From Enterobacteria phage FL68 Tallahassee/FL/2012, in sequence record KF044309.1: a DNA stretch of 5,486 bases; one strand, given 5' to 3'. The notes under the pieces were generated by a model. The model did not search any database, was not told the DNA's origin, and saw nothing but the letters and a program-made list of their open reading frames with translations. Shown here piece after piece: positions 1 through 5,486 of the stretch; position 1 is the first letter of the stretch; each line of letters starts with the position of its first letter. The position numbers were made by a program, and so were the translations under genes.

Positions 1-3
1 ACC

Positions 4-33
4 TTGACACAACCATAACTACATATCTATCAT
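4..33 (+). promoter_or_regulatory. Candidate sigma70 promoter for gene A (pA-like): -35 TTGACA at 4-9, 18-nt spacer, -10 TATCAT at 28-33
   Basis: Perfect -35 hexamer TTGACA at 4-9; the best -10 at compatible spacing is TATCAT (28-33). The predicted transcript start (~40) lies upstream of the GGAGG Shine-Dalgarno at 48-52 and the ATG at 62. Position matches the H-A intergenic promoter of phiX174-type phages. Sequence pattern only. Confidence 0.3.
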
Positions 34-61
34 GCCTCCAAATCATCGGAGGCTTTCTTAC

Positions 62-1723
62 ATGCAACAAGCTAGTGACTTCTACAACAAACCACATATC
101 GACGCTATCAAACCACTCGTTGAAACCGCTGGTATGTCTGTGCTTTCTCAATCTCCAAACCTCCGTATCTGGAAACAGGTAAATTCTCGTATCAAACTAT
201 TGGAAGAAATCCTTGCTCATTACACCAATGGCATCCGCCGTGACGACAACGGCGACTTCTGGATGAATCCCAATTCTCAACTCGCAACCACAATTGCCTA
301 TCGTGCCCATCAAAAAGGACACAACCCAAAACTTATTCAATACCCTGATACATTCACTCTGGATGACATCATCCGTAAAAAGCCATTACCACAAAACGCT
401 CCTGACGAATTAAAACTCTCCGATGAAATCGGGGAAGACTATCGCCTTACAATCATCTCTCTAATCGAAGAAATGCAAGAAATCTACGACGTGCTCGGAC
501 AACTTGATATTAATAACACTATAGACCACAAACCTATCGGTAACGCCCACTGGAATCTACTCTATGAAAAACCTGTATATAAACACTGGTATGAACTGGT
601 ATCAAAACGACCCCTTAAATCAATCAGAGACGACTACAACTATGCAAAGGCTAAGGGTATTAAGGATGAATGCTCGAAAATCCTTGAGGAATCCACCATG
701 AAATCACGTAGAGGCTTTACCGTACAAAGACTAATGAATGCTATGCGCACTGCCCACACTGAGGGCTGGTACGTTGTATTCGATACTCTTACTCTTGCCG
801 ATGACCGCCTTAAGGATTTCTATGATAATCCCAATGCTCTTCGTGACTATTTCCGTGATATTGGTCGTATGGTTCTCACTGCCGAGGGTCGTTCTGTCCA
901 TGATTCATCTTCGGACTGCTATCAGTACTTTTGTGTGCCTGAGTATGGCACCCAGCACGGCCGTTTACATTTTCACGCAGTGCACCTTATGCGCACACTT
1001 CCTTTGGGTTCTATCGACCCTAACTTTGGCAAGCTGGTGCGTACTAATCGGCAAATAAATAGCTTGCAAAATACATGGCCCTATGGTTACTCTATGCCCA
1101 TCGCGGTCCGGTACTCCCAAGACGCATTCTCGCGCGCTGGCTGGCTCTGGCCCGTTGATACAAAGGGCGAACCTCTTAAAGCTACCTCGTATATGGCTGT
1201 CGGCTTCTACGTCGCTAAATACGTTAACAAAAAATCAGATATTGACATGGCCTCTAAAGGTCTAGGGAATAAAGAATGGAACAATTCACTCAAAACCAAA
1301 ATCAACCTGCTGCCCAAGAAAATCTTCCGCATCAGAATGTCTCGCAACTTCGGAATGAAGCTGCACACAATGAGTCACCTCTCAGCGGAAACTCTAATCC
1401 AACTGACCCAAGTGGGCTACGACGTGACCCCGTTCAACAACATCTTGAAGCAGAACGCCAAGAAAGAGCTACGATTGAGGCTGGCAAAGAAATCTGTCGC
1501 CGACGTTTTGGAGGCGCAACCTGTGACGACCAATCTGCTAAAATTCATGCGCAATTTGACCCGTCAAATCGGAGTGTCCAACCTGCAGAGTTTTATCGCT
1601 TCAATGACAACGAAATTAACAAGTATGGATATTTCTGATGAAACCAAAAACTACGTTGATACTGCAGGAATTACTGCTACTCACTTACGAATTAAATCGA
1701 AGTGGACTGCTGGTGGAAAATGA
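62..1723 (+). CDS. A: Replication initiation protein A (rolling-circle HUH endonuclease, gpA)
   Basis: Long ORF in frame 2, collinear with my recollection of phiX174/G4 protein A (e.g. [63 protein letters not shown]-terminus). HUH motif HFHAVH at 968-985; catalytic YVAKY at 1208-1222. Start is ambiguous: the ORF opens at ATG 32 (563 aa) with no Shine-Dalgarno, while in-frame ATG 62 (553 aa) has GGAGG at 48-52 with 9-nt spacing. I call 62; the alternative is 32..1723. Confidence 0.9.
500..529 (+). other. Viral (+) strand origin of rolling-circle replication, 30-nt conserved core CAACTTGATATTAATAACACTATAGACCAC; predicted gpA nick between G506 and A507
   Basis: Exact match to the 30-nt origin conserved in phiX174/G4/alpha3/St-1 as I recall it. 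Lies inside gene A at the homologous place and encodes [10 protein letters not shown]. Confidence 0.85.
698..1723 (+). CDS. A*: Protein A* (internal in-frame restart within gene A; C-terminal 341 aa of gpA)
   Basis: In-frame ATG at 698 with GAGGA Shine-Dalgarno at 686-690 (7-nt spacing). Product begins MKSRRGF as phiX174 A* does, and is 341 aa, the same length as phiX174 A*. Confidence 0.75.
1276..1638 (+). CDS. B: Internal scaffolding protein B
   Basis: 120-aa ORF in frame 1, wholly inside gene A. Collinear with phiX174 gpB as recalled (MEQ..., QLR(D/N)E(N/A)AHN, GLRRD(A/P)[17 protein letters not shown](K/Q)[11 protein letters not shown]-terminal (F/Y)GYF). GGGA Shine-Dalgarno-like stretch at 1265-1268. 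Stop TGA overlaps the K start (TGATG). Confidence 0.9.
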
Positions 1724-1808
1724 AGAAATTCAATCTGAACTTAAAAAACTCGAGAAGCTCTTACTTCGCCACCTTTCGCCATCACCTGAACGTACTGGCA
1801 AAGACTGA
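1638..1808 (+). CDS. K: Protein K (small non-essential protein overlapping A and C)
   Basis: Hand translation from ATG 1638 in frame 0 gives a 56-aa product, [56 protein letters not shown]. It is the same length as phiX174 K and shares the [17 protein letters not shown] and LEKLLL blocks. Overlaps the A 3' end and the C 5' end. Not on the supplied ORF track. Confidence 0.85.
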
Positions 1809-1974
1809 CGCTCTCGACGAGGAAAAATACCTAAATATGCTAGGTGCTCTCCTCAAGGACTGGTTCCGTTACGAAGAACATTTCGTACATGGTAAACAAT
1901 CAATGCTTGACTTATTAAATGAACGTGGACTATTATCCACATCAACAACCAACCCAAAAGGAAATACAAAATGA
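1720..1974 (+). CDS. C: Protein C (ssDNA synthesis and packaging switch protein)
   Basis: 84-aa product [21 protein letters not shown]..., collinear with phiX174 gpC ([45 protein letters not shown]). ATG 1720 overlaps the A stop TGA (ATGA). The track's 1702 start is a GTG upstream extension with no support. Confidence 0.9.
1907..1936 (+). promoter_or_regulatory. Candidate sigma70 promoter pD inside gene C: -35 TTGACT at 1907-1912, 18-nt spacer, -10 TATTAT at 1931-1936
   Basis: Near-consensus hexamers with good spacing, about 35 nt upstream of the D start. The homologous phiX174 region (TTGACA ... TACTAT) is the known pD promoter. The AAGGA Shine-Dalgarno for D at 1958-1962 lies downstream of the predicted start. 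Confidence 0.55.
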
Positions 1975-2426
1975 ACTCTAACGAATCTGCTGTTGCCTTC
2001 GCTACTGCTCTCGCATCTATCAAGCTTATTCAGGCTTCATCTGTGCTGGACCTGACCGAAGACGACTTCGACTTCTTAACCCGTGACCGTGTATGGATTG
2101 CCACTGACCGCTCCCGTGCCCGCCGCGCTATTGAGGCCTGCGTATATGGTACATTGGACTTTGTCGGATACCCTCGCTTTCCTGCTCCTGTTGAGTTTAT
2201 TGCTGCCGTCATTGCTTATTATGTTCATCCCGTTAACATCCAGACAGCATGTCTTATTATGGAAGGCGCCGAGTTCACCGAAAATATTATCAATGGTGTT
2301 GACCAGCCAGTTAAGGCCGCTGAACTATTCGCTTTTACCTTGCGTGTACGCGCCGGAAACACTGACCATGTTACACATGCAGAAACTAACGTACGTGAAC
2401 AATTACGTGCTCAAGGAGTAATGTAA
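1971..2426 (+). CDS. D: External scaffolding protein D
   Basis: 151-aa product, very close to phiX174 gpD as recalled (TALASIKLIQAS, VLDLTEDDFDFLT, VWIATDRSRARR, EACVYGTLDFVGYPRFPAPVEFIAAVIAYYVHPVNIQTACLIMEGAEFTENIING, PVKAAELFAFTLRVRAGNTD). ATG overlaps the C stop (ATGA). Confidence 0.95.
   Translation: MNSNESAVAFATALASIKLIQASSVLDLTEDDFDFLTRDRVWIATDRSRARRAIEACVYGTLDFVGYPRFPAPVEFIAAVIAYYVHPVNIQTACLIMEGAEFTENIINGVDQPVKAAELFAFTLRVRAGNTDHVTHAETNVREQLRAQGVM
2146..2421 (+). CDS. E: Lysis protein E (MraY inhibitor), embedded in the +1 frame of gene D
   Basis: ATG 2146 with GAGG at 2133-2136. 91-aa product MVHWTLSDTLAFLLLLSLLLPSLLIMFIPLTS..., matching phiX174 E in length and in the N-terminal transmembrane segment (WTLWDTLAFLLLLSLLLPSLLIMFIP). 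The track's 112-aa version starts at an upstream GTG. Confidence 0.9.
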   Translation: MVHWTLSDTLAFLLLLSLLLPSLLIMFIPLTSRQHVLLWKAPSSPKILSMVLTSQLRPLNYSLLPCVYAPETLTMLHMQKLTYVNNYVLKE

Positions 2427-2506
2427 TGGCTAAAGGCTCTCGTCGGCGTTCGCCGTCCCGCTCTAAAGGTGCTCGCCTCTGGTATGTTGGCGGCACACAA
2501 TTCTAA
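2426..2506 (+). CDS. J: DNA-binding (packaging) protein J, small basic protein
   Basis: Hand translation gives the 26-aa product MAKGSRRRSPSRSKGARLWYVGGTQF. The KGARLWYVGG core is conserved in phiX174 and G4 J proteins, and the short length matches my recollection of the G4-like J. Strong AAGGAG Shine-Dalgarno at 2413-2418; the ATG overlaps the D stop (TAATG). Too short for the ORF track. Confidence 0.85.
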   Translation: MAKGSRRRSPSRSKGARLWYVGGTQF

Positions 2507-2512
2507 TCTTCT

Positions 2513-2528
2513 AGGGGCTTCGGCCCCT
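2513..2528 (+). terminator. J-F intergenic stem-loop: 6-bp GC-rich stem AGGGGC/GCCCCT closed by a UUCG tetraloop, followed by CTATTT
   Basis: Perfect inverted repeat 2513-2518 / 2523-2528 with loop TTCG. Sits between the J stop and the F Shine-Dalgarno, where phiX174 has its inefficient terminator and mRNA-stabilising hairpin TJ. Confidence 0.45.
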
Positions 2529-2545
2529 CTATTTAAGGATATAAA

Positions 2546-3829
2546 ATGTCTAACGTTCAAACTTCCGCTGACCGTATTCCTAACGACCTTTCTCACCTCG
2601 TCTTCGAGGCTGGCAAAATCGGTCGTTTAAAAACTATCTCTTGGACTCCAGTTGTCGCTGGCGACTCATTTGAAACTGAAATGGTAGGCGCTATTCGCCT
2701 TTCCCCACTTCGTCGTGGCCTTGCCGTCGACTCTCGCGTGGATATTTTCTCCTTCTACATCCCGCATCGTCATATCTATGGTCAACAATGGATTGACTTT
2801 ATTAAAGCTGGTGTTAATGCTACTCCGCTGGCTCCTGTTACCTGCTCCTCTGGCTGGGACTCTGCTGCCTATCTTGGCACTATTCCATCATCTACACTCA
2901 AGGTTCCTAAATTCTTACATCAAGGATACCTGAATATTTACAATAACTACTTCAAACCGCCGTGGGATACTGACCTCACTTACGCTAACCCATCTAACAT
3001 GCCTGAACAGGATTATAAATGGGGTGTTCGTGTCGCTAACTTAAAATCTATCTGGACCGCTCCTCTGCCTCCTAACTCTAAAATATCAGAGACTATGACC
3101 ACTGGCGCTACGTCTATTGATATTATGGGCCTGCAAGCTGCTTATGCTAAATTGCATACCCAACAAGAACGTGACTACTTCATGACTCGCTACCGCGATA
3201 TTATGAAAGACTTCGGCGGACACACCTCCTACGATGGTGATAACCGCCCTCTGCTGCTTATGCGCTCTGAATTCTGGGCCTCTGGCTATGACGTCGACGG
3301 TACTGACCAATCTTCATTAGGTCAGTTCTCTGGTCGCGTCCAACAGACATTCAATCACAAAGTACCTCGCTTCTATGTACCTGAACACGGCGTCATTATG
3401 ACTCTCGCTGTTACTCGCTTCCCTCCTACTCATGAAATGGAGATGCACTATCTTGTCGGCAAAGAATCTTTAACTTATACCGACATCGCTTGCGACCCTG
3501 CTCTTATGGCTAACTTGCCTCCGCGCGAAGTATCCCTTAAGGAATTCTTCCACTCTTCGCCGGACTCCGCTAAGTTCAAAATCGCCGAAGGTCAATGGTA
3601 CCGCACGCAGCCTGACCGTGTCGCATACCCTTATAACGCTCTTGATGGCTTCCCGTTCTATTCTGAACTGCCATCTACTGACTTAAAACAACGTGTCTTA
3701 GTTAATACTGATAACTACGATGAAATCTTCCAGTCTATGCAACTCGCACACTGGAATATGCAAACCAAATTTAACACTACTGTCTATAGACACATGCCTA
3801 CGACTCGTGATTCAATCATGACGTCATAA
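2546..3829 (+). CDS. F: Major capsid protein F
   Basis: 427-aa product, collinear with the phiX174 and G4 F proteins as recalled (MSN(I/V)QT, GDSFE, LRLSPLRRGLA, GYLNIYNNYFK, IDIMGLQAAYA, QERDYFM, SGYDVDGTDQ, SLGQFSGRVQQT, KFKIAEGQWYR, LPTTRDSIMTS C-terminus); same length as phiX174 F. AAGGA Shine-Dalgarno at 2535-2539. Confidence 0.97.
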   Translation: MSNVQTSADRIPNDLSHLVFEAGKIGRLKTISWTPVVAGDSFETEMVGAIRLSPLRRGLAVDSRVDIFSFYIPHRHIYGQQWIDFIKAGVNATPLAPVTCSSGWDSAAYLGTIPSSTLKVPKFLHQGYLNIYNNYFKPPWDTDLTYANPSNMPEQDYKWGVRVANLKSIWTAPLPPNSKISETMTTGATSIDIMGLQAAYAKLHTQQERDYFMTRYRDIMKDFGGHTSYDGDNRPLLLMRSEFWASGYDVDGTDQSSLGQFSGRVQQTFNHKVPRFYVPEHGVIMTLAVTRFPPTHEMEMHYLVGKESLTYTDIACDPALMANLPPREVSLKEFFHSSPDSAKFKIAEGQWYRTQPDRVAYPYNALDGFPFYSELPSTDLKQRVLVNTDNYDEIFQSMQLAHWNMQTKFNTTVYRHMPTTRDSIMTS

Positions 3830-3840
3830 AGCCTATAACG

Positions 3841-3878
3841 TGACAGGGGGAAAAATTTTAATTTTTCGCCCCCTGTCA
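3841..3878 (+). other. F-G intergenic long hairpin (10-bp GC-rich stem plus 5-bp A-T extension, with a 2-nt bulge); candidate terminator and/or complementary-strand origin element
   Basis: TGACAGGGGG (3841-3850) pairs with CCCCCTGTCA (3869-3878); AAAAA (3851-3855) pairs with TTTTT (3862-3866); CG at 3867-3868 is bulged. The F-G intergenic region is where phiX174-type phages carry a terminator (TF) and their complementary-strand initiation signals, primase-dependent in G4 and PriA-dependent in phiX174. Function is inferred from position only. Confidence 0.4.
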
Positions 3879-3928
3879 GGTTGAACAAGCGCAAGCGCGT
3901 TAGCTGCCTAACTTAAAAGGAAACTCAA

Positions 3929-4468
3929 ATGTTCCAGAAATTCGTCAAAAAACATAACGCCCCGTTAACTTCTCAAGCTGCTATCTCTAAAGCTGTTACT
4001 CCATCTATGACCGCCGCCCCTCTTGTTACTACACCTCTCGGCGTGTCTTCTACTCAATTATTCTTGGAACTTACAACCACTGCCGCCGCTGGCGGCTTCG
4101 CTTACGCTATCCGCGTAGACAATTCTAACCCTACTGATAATCAGGTCTTCTCCGTCTGTGCTCACATTACATCTGACGTGGACCCTAAATATATTGCGTG
4201 CCTCGTTCGCTTTGAGGTCACTGCTGGTACCACTCCTACCGCTATGCCTCCTGTCTATGATGCTTACCCTATCGCTGGTTACTATGGCGCTGGCTCTTAT
4301 ACTGTTGAAGACTGCGCTACTATTCCTACTCACGCTGTCTCTTCTGGCAACGATGTATATGTCGGCCTTATGCTTTTCTCTCGCATGTGGCCCGTTGCAA
4401 AACTATCCGGTATCGCTTCCCTTAATCAGGTAAACAAGGAAGTAACCGTTCTCCAACCTCTTAAATAA
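3929..4468 (+). CDS. G: Major spike protein G
   Basis: 179-aa product with the phiX174 gpG N-terminus (MFQ.F...HN), the ACLVRFE block and the SLNQV(I/N)KE...LQPLK C-terminus. AAGGA Shine-Dalgarno at 3917-3921. Confidence 0.95.
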
Positions 4469-4478
4469 GGTATTCTCT

Positions 4479-5486
4479 ATGTTTGGTGCAATCGCTGGCG
4501 GTATCGCCTCATCTCTTGCTGGCGGACTCATCAACAAAGCCTTTGGGGGCGGTCAATCCGCCTCCTCTACTGGCGTTCAAGGTGATGTCCTCGCTTCTGA
4601 CAATAACGTAATCGGTGCTAATGATGCTGGTATCAAATCCGCTATTCAAGGCTCTAATCCGCCTAATGGCCAACAAGCTGCTCCCAATGCTATTTCGGGC
4701 GTTCTCGCTGACACTGGCAAAGACGCCCTATCTTCAATCACTGGCGCTGGCGTTAATAAACTTATGGAAAAAATCGGACTATCTAAAACTGCTGCTGATA
4801 AAGGCAAGGACACAAAGGATTATCTTGCTGCTGCATTCCCCGAACTCAACGCGTGGGAACGCGCTGGCTCTGGTGCTTCGTCTGCTGGCATGGTTGACGC
4901 TGGCTTCCAAAACCAAAAAGAATTAACTCGCATGCAGCTTGACAATCAAAAAGAAATCGCTAAGATGCAAAACGACACACAAAAGGATATCGCTGGTATC
5001 CAATCTGTCACATCCCGGCAAAATACTAAGGATGCTGTCTATGCTCAAAACGAGATGCTCGAATATAACCAAAAAGAATCTATGTCACGCGTTGGCTCTA
5101 TTCTCGAAAACACAAGCCTCACCAAACAACAACAAACTTCTGAAATTATGCGGCAGATGCTTACTCAAGCTCAAACCGCAGGTCAACATTTTACAAATGA
5201 CCAAATCAAAGAACTTACACGAAAAGTTGGCGCTGATATTGATTCTGTCCGCGCTAACACTGACCGTACACATGTAGAAACTCAACGTTCAAAACAGGAA
5301 GTTCAAAACTCTCGTTATGCTTCCTCACAAGTCGGTAAAACCGCTAAAGATGTCTCTAATGCAGTTACTGATACAGCTAGTTCTATTGTTGATTATTTTC
5401 GTGGTATTGATAACAAAGTGGCAGACGCTTATAACAACTATTTCAAAGATGGTAAATCCGACGGAATCGGGTCGAACATCAAATAA
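4479..5486 (+). CDS. H: DNA pilot protein H (minor spike, DNA-translocating tube)
   Basis: 335-aa product collinear with phiX174 gpH as recalled ([56 protein letters not shown](R/K)[48 protein letters not shown]). Gly-rich N-terminus and a Gln-rich coiled-coil-like middle. Stop TAA is the last three bases of the window. Confidence 0.95.

Follow-up and report, generated by a model that had tools for sequence, protein, structure and literature searches.

The window (the whole stretch of DNA that was analysed, 5486 nt) carries the eleven canonical genes of a microvirus, once each, in order and on one strand, as had been predicted, and their coordinates match the annotation of the FL76 and ID2 records. 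The genes, all annotated in those records, are listed below.

62..1723, + strand: gene A, rolling-circle replication initiator, 553 aa (Phage_GPA, E 9e-59; 100% identical to ID2, 89% to G4)
698..1723, + strand: gene A*, in-frame start inside A, 341 aa (ATG with GAGG upstream)
1276..1638, + strand: gene B, internal scaffolding protein, overprinted in A (Phage_B, E 2e-47)
1638..1808, + strand: gene K, 56 aa, spanning the A/C boundary, with Thr6 (Protein_K, E 2e-18)
1720..1974, + strand: gene C, 84 aa, acts in DNA maturation and in switching to single-strand synthesis (Phage_C, E 6e-37)
1971..2426, + strand: gene D, external scaffolding protein, 151 aa (gpD, E 1e-84)
2146..2421, + strand: gene E, lysis protein, 91 aa, overprinted in D (Microvir_lysis, E 2e-13)
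2426..2506, + strand: gene J, short basic DNA-packaging protein, 26 aa (Microvir_J, E 4e-14)
2546..3829, + strand: gene F, major capsid protein, 427 aa (Phage_F, E 6e-164)
3929..4468, + strand: gene G, major spike protein, 179 aa, divergent allele (Phage_G, E 9e-47)
4479..5486, + strand: gene H, DNA pilot/minor spike protein, 335 aa (Microvir_H, E 1e-138)

Every gene begins with ATG and has one terminal stop, and a purine-rich stretch (AGG/GGAG-type) was found upstream of each except K, the start of which overlaps the B stop. All ten distinct proteins exceeded the Pfam thresholds; their families are unambiguous, and each has a nearly identical relative among annotated proteins. The E protein possesses an LLLP motif within its N-terminal membrane helix. 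The size, the single coding strand and the gene order A(A*)-B-K-C-D-E-J-F-G-H are those of Bullavirinae (about 5.4-6.1 kb). The external scaffolding protein D and the spike protein G, which separate Bullavirinae from gokushoviruses, were both recovered by their profiles. Two further elements lie in and behind the coding sequences.

1907..1936, + strand: promoter-like TTGACT-18-TATTAT within C, some 35 nt before D (10/12 matches)
2513..2528, + strand: GC-rich hairpin AGGGGC-TTCG-GCCCCT in the J-F spacer (fold, -6.9 kcal/mol)

The former sits where promoter pD of phiX174 would lie, and from this position and the phiX174 map it may be the equivalent site. The latter is probably a terminator after J, judging from its position. 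No RNA family was detected in the window by Rfam at gathering thresholds.

A further signal, the viral-strand origin, lies inside gene A.

500..529, + strand: viral-strand (+) origin, 30 nt, CAACTTGATATTAATAACACTATAGACCAC (exact match to the phiX174 origin, 0 expected by chance)

By homology, protein A would nick between G506 and A507; the rep_origin of the phiX174 record, at 4306, is the A that corresponds to A507 of the window. Protein A itself carries the HUH motif HFHAVH (968-985) and the catalytic tyrosine motif YVAKYVNK (1208-1231). Thus, the combination that marks Bullavirinae, a 30-nt origin inside A and an HUH/two-tyrosine initiator, is present in full: the exact 30-mer, both motifs and the Phage_GPA domain.

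When the window was compared with deposited genomes by megablast, the nearest record was KF044310.1 (Enterobacteria phage FL76 Tallahassee/FL/2012), with 100% coverage and 99.9% identity. The record was deposited as complete and circular, has 5486 nt and is opened at the same base as the window. The two share their length, linearisation point and all eleven genes, and 5483 of 5486 bases are the same, the remainder being two substitutions and one resolved N. No record examined was identical to the window at every base. T1654C in the window changes Met6 of K to Thr and is silent in A (C at this position is also found in ID2, ID204 and G4), C2340T is silent in D and E alike, and the N at 3346 of the record is G in the window. 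The next record was ID2 (NC_007817 / DQ079869), with 97.7% identity across all 5486 nt, followed by ID204 with 95.3% identity over 91% of the length. The taxonomy lines of FL76 and ID2 place them in Bullavirinae, genus Gequatrovirus (the genus of G4), species Gequatrovirus talmos, and the window shows near-identity at the nucleotide level to this species (ID2, ID204, FL76). The original prediction of a whole G4-like microvirus genome was therefore supported by two records of exactly this length, and the best BLASTN matches fell inside the phiX174/G4/alpha3 group and not outside it. We consider it nearly certain that the window is the complete genome of a Gequatrovirus talmos strain (ID2/FL76 group, Bullavirinae, Microviridae), given as the viral (+) strand and cut directly 3' of the H stop. 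Such a genome is already known, since its close kin FL76 was sequenced previously; the result is an ordinary finding, correctly read, and no discovery.

ID2 Moscow/ID/2001, an Escherichia phage, is the exemplar of Gequatrovirus talmos and a model in experimental evolution. The window agrees with it in length and gene coordinates, and it has exactly the same F-G hairpin, G allele and proteins A, C, E and J. In contrast, 130 substitutions separate the two, 90 of which fall in gene F (7% there versus about 1% elsewhere), where they cause 14 amino-acid changes. This concentration in F could be expected of a laboratory recombinant or an experimentally evolved line, and ID2 x ID12 gene-F hybrids have indeed been constructed experimentally (PMC4627924). 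However, F of the window is that of the deposited isolate FL76 save for the resolved N, and nowhere does the window come close to being identical with ID12 or G4-type genomes, to which the identity is about 85% throughout (megablast). Further, of the two differences from FL76, one reverts to the base seen in ID2 and G4, and the other is silent in both D and E. A laboratory origin is thus very improbable.

The likeness to G4 (NC_001420, the type member of Gequatrovirus) extends to gene order, the (+) origin and a short J (25-26 aa). The length of the window lies between those of phiX174 and G4, as anticipated (5386 < 5486 < 5577 nt). The prediction that F is nearer to that of G4 than to that of phiX174 was confirmed (91.8% versus 66.3% identity), and the same held for J (69% versus 42%), the nearest relative of which is the J of alpha3 (77%). 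Since the genus and gene order are shared, the A, B, K, C, D, F and H proteins are 82-92% identical and the window is 91 nt shorter than G4, it might be read as a strain of G4 (species Gequatrovirus G4) with small deletions. We assign this reading a negligible probability. Nucleotide identity to G4-type genomes is only 84-85% over 87% of the length (phiX174, about 70%), and the matching records are classed as another species. The G protein is 43% identical to that of G4 and 46% to that of phiX174, the E protein 55% and 66%, respectively, and window positions 3833-4421 had no blastn match to G4. The complementary-strand origin annotated in G4 is likewise missing from the window. Thus, nucleotide identity, the divergence of G and E, the blastn gap and the origin profile described below refute a G4 strain. 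The term "G4-like" holds for A, B, K, C, D, F and H but fails for G, E and the F-G spacer. Only FL76 and ID2 carry a G with at least 95% identity; in the remaining 566 phage records that matched, identity was below 60%. The phage of the window is a species separate from G4, with a very different spike gene G and an F-G intergenic element of the phiX174 type.

The eleven-gene plan and, to the base, the 30-nt (+) origin are common to the window and phiX174 (NC_001422, Sinsheimervirus). The promoter and hairpin of the H-A spacer have homologues there, and so do the F-G hairpin and the conserved block 3' of it. The window differs from phiX174 in A (63% identity), in F (66%), in the length of J (26 aa versus 38 aa in phiX174) and in the stem of the F-G hairpin, the sequence of which is altered through compensatory changes. 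G4 differs from the window in a 32-nt spacer before J and in the F-G spacer, which is 136 nt in G4 and 99 nt in the window.

The F-G spacer contains the following elements.

3837..3882, + strand: long single-strand DNA hairpin (fold z -3.9; the strongest inverted repeat in the window)
3879..3903, + strand: nearly invariant block GGTTGA(A/C)CAAGCG(C)AAGCGCG(T/G)TAG just 3' of the hairpin (invariant spacer columns G50-G74)

A profile of the phiX174-type spacer matched the window with E 1e-26, and the spacer alignment held 46 invariant columns, with an identical apex, AAATTTTAATTT. Covariation was evident in the stem: 9 of 19 pairs showed compensatory change, 98.2% were paired, and none of 500 shuffles was as good. 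The block 3' of the hairpin is common to phiX174, ID18, PJNS002 and the Lille/SECphi17 phages. The location of the phiX174 F-G hairpin and its role in primosome assembly have been described (PMC9865509, PMC5778457), with the caution that phiX174 hairpins may serve otherwise, for example in transcription termination (PMC9865509). The window thus possesses, ahead of G, a phiX174-type hairpin homologous to the primosome assembly site of phiX174, and by this homology it would function as the complementary-strand origin.

In G4, by contrast, the origin occupies the 136-nt F-G spacer and consists of three stem-loops and CTG, at which complementary-strand synthesis needs only primase and SSB to begin (PMC6783573). 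An arrangement of three stem-loops followed by CTG (compare G4 3884-4019) was not found in the window, the G4 origin had no blastn match there, and the G4/alpha3 origin profile scored no better than E 1.6, as against E 5e-41 on G4 and 7e-43 on alpha3. A search with the G4 spacer returned 365 phage records, all with at least 90% identity, and one with the phiX-type spacer returned 110 phage records. No talmos-group phage was among the 40 listed of the 365 G4-type matches, and no G4-type phage was among the 40 listed of the 110 phiX-type matches. The phiX174-type element together with the absence of the G4 primase origin suggests that the complementary strand may be started in the manner of phiX174, through a primosome whose assembly depends on PriA, and not in that of G4, where primase and SSB suffice. 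By homology, the putative assembly site would bind PriA and depend on PriA, PriB, DnaT, DnaB and DnaC.

The ends of the window bear on whether the genome is complete. As predicted, the window ends exactly on the H stop (TAA at 5484-5486), and a promoter-like element precedes A.

4..33, + strand: promoter-like TTGACA-18-TATCAT upstream of A (11/12 matches, the top-scoring site of the window)
34..53, + strand: hairpin GCCTCC-N8-GGAGGC followed by TTTCTT (the sole terminator-like site detected in the window)

The TTGAC of the promoter-like site aligns with the H-A spacers of phiX174, G4, PJNS002 and SECphi17, and the site is presumably the counterpart of phiX174 promoter pA, its function being assigned by homology; a transcription start is annotated at 3962 of the phiX174 record. 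The arms of the hairpin are conserved in phiX174, G4, PJNS002, SECphi17, ID2 and ID204. We infer a dual role for it, in which it would terminate H transcripts and its 3' arm would double as the GGAGG ribosome-binding site of gene A. An in-frame ATG at 32 was considered as the start of A and rejected: it lies upstream of this ribosome-binding site (49-53), and the FL76, ID2, ID204, G4 and phiX174 records start A just 3' of the homologous GGAGG.

When the window is joined end to start, the junction reads ...CATCAAATAA|ACCTTGACAC... and the H-A spacer becomes 61 nt, close to that of phiX174, as had been estimated (63 nt in phiX174, 58 nt in G4). In PJNS002, lillemer, SECphi17 and phiX174, the records of which are cut elsewhere, the homologous TTGAC promoter follows the H stop directly, and nothing is inserted between them. 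The PJNS002 spacer aligns from the first base past TAA, and that of phiX174 has 6 extra bases there. Additional sequence between the H stop and the start of the window, which would have spoken against the original prediction, is thus not indicated, the junction being continuous in PJNS002, lillemer and SECphi17. A cut just 3' of the H stop is the convention of the ID2, FL76 and G4 records.

Neither topology nor single-strandedness can be read from a linear sequence, and the window could in principle be a piece of a larger prophage, plasmid insert, concatemer or contig, the ends of which fall at gene boundaries by chance. We give this almost no credence. The length equals that of two independently deposited circular genomes, neither a terminal repeat nor a duplicated gene was found in the window, and the H-A spacers of relatives cut elsewhere are alike in length (60-63 nt) and content. 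Further, none of 5,426 complete E. coli genomes matched the window, and a 36-mer of the F-G hairpin was absent from a bacterial and archaeal genome collection of 185,579 species; a prophage or contaminant was dropped because no copy was found in these complete E. coli or representative bacterial genomes. Circularity, which a single linear sequence cannot prove, rests on the deposited topology of FL76 and ID2 and on junction homology. From the circular records and the continuous junction in relatives, the virion DNA would be a circular single strand.

The exact junction 22-mer and 27-mer were absent from IMG/VR and JGI metagenome contigs. A control with an internal 36-mer matched only ID2 itself in IMG/VR, cut at the same base; the absence of the junction therefore says little and was not counted against circularity. 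The single metagenome match was a SECphi17-like phage, which is another species. Among contigs encoding the exact H protein, only the FL76 record was found and no differently rotated assembly.

The biology of phiX174 and G4 suggests the following life cycle. The circular single strand would enter the cell, and host enzymes would make it double-stranded from the F-G spacer hairpin. Protein A would then nick the (+) origin at 506/507 and drive rolling-circle replication. Procapsids would be built by F, G, H, B and D, C and J would direct the packaging of new single strands, and E would block MraY and lyse the cell.

It is conceivable, though we regard it as rather doubtful, that two host-dependent modes of starting the complementary strand coexist in Gequatrovirus and have been swapped by recombination. 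The primase-only G4 origin would be carried by G4, ID11 and ID12-type phages, and the phiX174-type hairpin, presumed to be PriA-dependent, by talmos (ID2/FL76/ID204) and ID18/EMCL318. In these last lineages the hairpin would lie beside an unrelated G allele, the donor lineage of which is outside the sequenced phages. If this is true and undescribed, ID2 and G4 would provide a natural, near-isogenic pair with which to study what favours one priming mode over the other. As a discovery the present analysis carries little weight; the gain is a clean annotation and a caveat on transferring G4 biology. Neither the spike protein G nor the complementary-strand origin is that of G4, and therefore assumptions on host recognition and priming made for G4 should not be transferred to this phage, the group of which is well used in experimental evolution.

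The sequence is that of an already known genome. When the whole window was compared with 50,697 phage records using megablast, a single match at 99.9% identity covered its full length: Enterobacteria phage FL76 Tallahassee/FL/2012 (KF044310.1), whose record describes a complete, circular genome, likewise exactly 5486 nt long. ID2 Moscow/ID/2001 (5486 nt), a standard subject of experimental evolution (PMC4627924), showed 97.7% identity, ID204 showed 95.3% identity over 91% of the window length, a large block of G4-type genomes showed 84-86%, and phiX174-type genomes fell in a 60-80% band. In the NCBI taxonomy, FL76, ID2 and ID204 (hereafter the talmos group) belong to Bullavirinae, genus Gequatrovirus, species Gequatrovirus talmos. 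As originally predicted, the best matches lay within the phiX174/G4/alpha3 group. Base-by-base comparison with FL76 revealed differences at positions 1654, 2340 and 3346 only. T1654C replaces the Met6 of K in FL76 with Thr in the window and is silent in A, and the window has the same base here as ID2, ID204 and G4; C2340T alters neither the D nor the E protein; and position 3346 is N in the FL76 record and G in the window. The window is therefore a corrected or slightly divergent version of FL76.

The coordinates of the eleven genes are identical in the FL76 and ID2 annotation and are listed here with the noncoding elements found in the window.

Features of the window
4-33, + strand, promoter-like site TTGACA-18-TATCAT, the best match to a sigma-70 promoter in the window
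34-53, + strand, terminator-like hairpin, the sole such site found in the window
62-1723, + strand, gene A
698-1723, + strand, gene A*
1276-1638, + strand, gene B
1638-1808, + strand, gene K
1720-1974, + strand, gene C
1971-2426, + strand, gene D
2146-2421, + strand, gene E
2426-2506, + strand, gene J (26 aa)
2546-3829, + strand, gene F
3830-3928, + strand, F-G spacer (99 nt) with a hairpin at 3837-3882
3929-4468, + strand, gene G (spike protein)
4479-5486, + strand, gene H, its stop being the last three bases of the window

All eleven genes begin with ATG and contain one terminal stop each, and a purine-rich stretch precedes every gene except K. Pfam thresholds were exceeded by all 10 distinct proteins. 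Neither duplicated genes nor a repeat common to both ends was found in the window. The coordinates, starts, stops and Pfam results agree with the original prediction that the eleven canonical Bullavirinae genes are each present once, in order, on one strand, and that the window ends on the H stop. The genome lengths given there for phiX174 (5386 nt) and G4 (5577 nt), between which 5486 nt falls, were correct, and the proposed proximity to G4 rather than phiX174 held for F (91.8% vs 66.3% identity) and J (69% vs 42%). Every observation in that prediction, including those on the promoter-like element and the H-A spacer described below, was confirmed.

Three lines of evidence (deposited circles, junction continuity and spacer alignment) agree in supporting the reading of the window as the entire circular genome. 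FL76 and ID2 come from independent isolations, and their records are both circular, equal in length and cut at the same base. A 600-nt query joining the last 300 bases of the window to the first 300 gave one continuous match in PJNS002, lillemer and SECphi17, whose records are cut elsewhere; these relatives possess no extra sequence between the H stop and the window start. In the multiple alignment, the TAA stop of H is followed by ATCTTGAC in PJNS002 and by ACCTTGAC in the window, and phiX174 has just six additional bases after the stop. Further, a TTGAC box, a GCCTCC/GGAGGC hairpin and a T-run are common to all aligned H-A spacers. Exact junction words had no match in viral and metagenome contig collections, which, as controls indicated, contain no differently rotated talmos copy. 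A search of 5,426 complete genomes of E. coli gave no copy of the window, and one-per-species bacterial genomes gave no match to a 36-mer of the F-G hairpin, which argues against a prophage or insert. SECphi17 (LT960607.1) and OBLN01002562.1 were deposited as linear records with a 55-nt direct repeat at both ends; this repeat is an assembler overlap on a circular genome, giving true lengths of 5483 and 5484 nt, respectively.

The joined H-A spacer is 61 nt long, near that of phiX174 (63 nt), as had been expected, and that of G4 (58 nt). It carries the predicted promoter-like element just upstream of A, and the GGAGG preceding the A start at 62 is the 3' arm of the 34-53 hairpin. Judged from the homologous start site in phiX174 (3962), transcripts from pA, the phiX174 promoter upstream of gene A, would begin in the hairpin loop, near position 40. 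The ribosome-binding site of A would then be accessible in pA transcripts but base-paired in those reading through from H. An in-frame ATG at 32, 30 nt upstream of the annotated A start, adjoins the 5' foot of this hairpin. Two long-range inverted repeats (34-49 with 1500-1515, 16 nt, 88% complementarity; 43-56 with 413-426, 14 nt, 86%) link the hairpin and ribosome-binding region to sites within gene A; they may have arisen by chance or form part of a long-range fold of the single strand or mRNA.

Gene A contains, at 500-529, a perfect copy of the 30-nt phiX174 viral-strand origin, and its protein has HUH and two-tyrosine (YVAKYVNK) motifs, so that A would be expected to cut the strand between G506 and A507 and drive rolling-circle synthesis. 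On the basis of record annotations and established phiX174 biology, F, G, H, B and D would build the procapsid, C and J would package the strand, and E would cause lysis.

The complementary strand would likewise be started in the phiX174 manner, at the F-G hairpin. In G4, the F-G spacer is 136 nt long, has no similarity to the 99-nt spacer of the window, and is annotated with the primer RNA and complementary-strand origin; there, three stem-loops and a CTG suffice for primase and SSB alone to start the strand (PMC6783573). In contrast, the window spacer aligns with those of phiX174, ID18, EMCL318, PJNS002 and the Lille/SECphi17 phages. The apex, AAATTTTAATTT, is the same in all these phiX-type spacers; the block downstream of it, GGTTGA-CAAGCG-AAGCGCG-TAG, hardly varies, and all fold, as single-stranded DNA, into the same long hairpin. 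In an alignment of six distinct spacers, 98.2% of the cells were paired, with 9 of 19 pairs changed on both sides; none of 500 shuffles equalled this, and sliding the pairing partner by 1-3 columns left only 37-60% paired. A profile of these spacers matched the window, ID2, ID204, SECphi17, PJNS002 and phiX174, with no match in G4 or alpha3, whereas a G4 and alpha3 origin profile matched those two only and not the window. In the phage collection, 110 records matched the phiX-type and 365 the G4-type spacer; no talmos-group phage was among the G4-type matches listed, and no G4-type phage among the phiX-type matches listed. ID18 and EMCL318, like the window, belong to Gequatrovirus, so that this single genus includes phages with either type of origin.

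The phiX174 hairpin ahead of gene G is described, in PMC9865509 citing Shlomai and Kornberg (1980), as recognised by the primosome; at the assembly site, PriA, PriB, PriC and DnaT load DnaB (PMC5778457). By analogy, the F-G hairpin of the window is presumably a primosome assembly site and not a primase-only origin of the G4 kind. Terminating transcription is another possible role of the hairpin, alongside or in place of this one. Identity between the window and the SECphi17/Lille/MG1 phages is 83-96% over the F-G spacer and the adjoining end of F (window 3751-3928 plus the first ~75 nt of G; SECphi17 3467-3624; Lilledu), with only about 55-58% in flanking bins; the spacer seems to be transferred as a unit.

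Interpretation as a complete G4-like microvirus genome is supported; "G4-like" is inaccurate for G, the E/J-spacer region and the F-G spacer. These three regions account for the dips in sliding identity to G4 (45-54% at about 3800-4400; 58-63% around 2400-2600). The G protein is 43% identical to that of G4 and 46% to that of phiX174. Among 569 phage records matching in tblastn, only FL76 and two ID2 records reached at least 95% protein identity; all others were below 60%, including ID204, which has a different G despite belonging to the same species (42-54% nucleotide identity in this region). The spike gene is an orphan allele among phage records. The E protein is closer to that of phiX174 (66%) than to that of G4 (55%), and the 32-nt spacer before J in G4 is missing in the window.

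Gene F contains 90 of the 130 substitutions relative to ID2 (7% divergence, compared with about 1% elsewhere) and 14 amino-acid changes, a pattern that points to recombination in the capsid gene or to greatly accelerated change; the substitutions are especially dense at 2700-3000 and 3600-3750. Rokyta et al. 2006 first described ID2 and reportedly found two or more transfers among the three clades. That work may already cover the mosaic features of the window (in G, the F-G spacer and F), or they may simply be implicit in public data, and we regard them as side observations rather than a finding. Salmonella phage PJNS002 is 95-97% identical to the window at 751-1050 (mid A/A*) and mostly 55-90% elsewhere, which looks like a patch of recent recombination.
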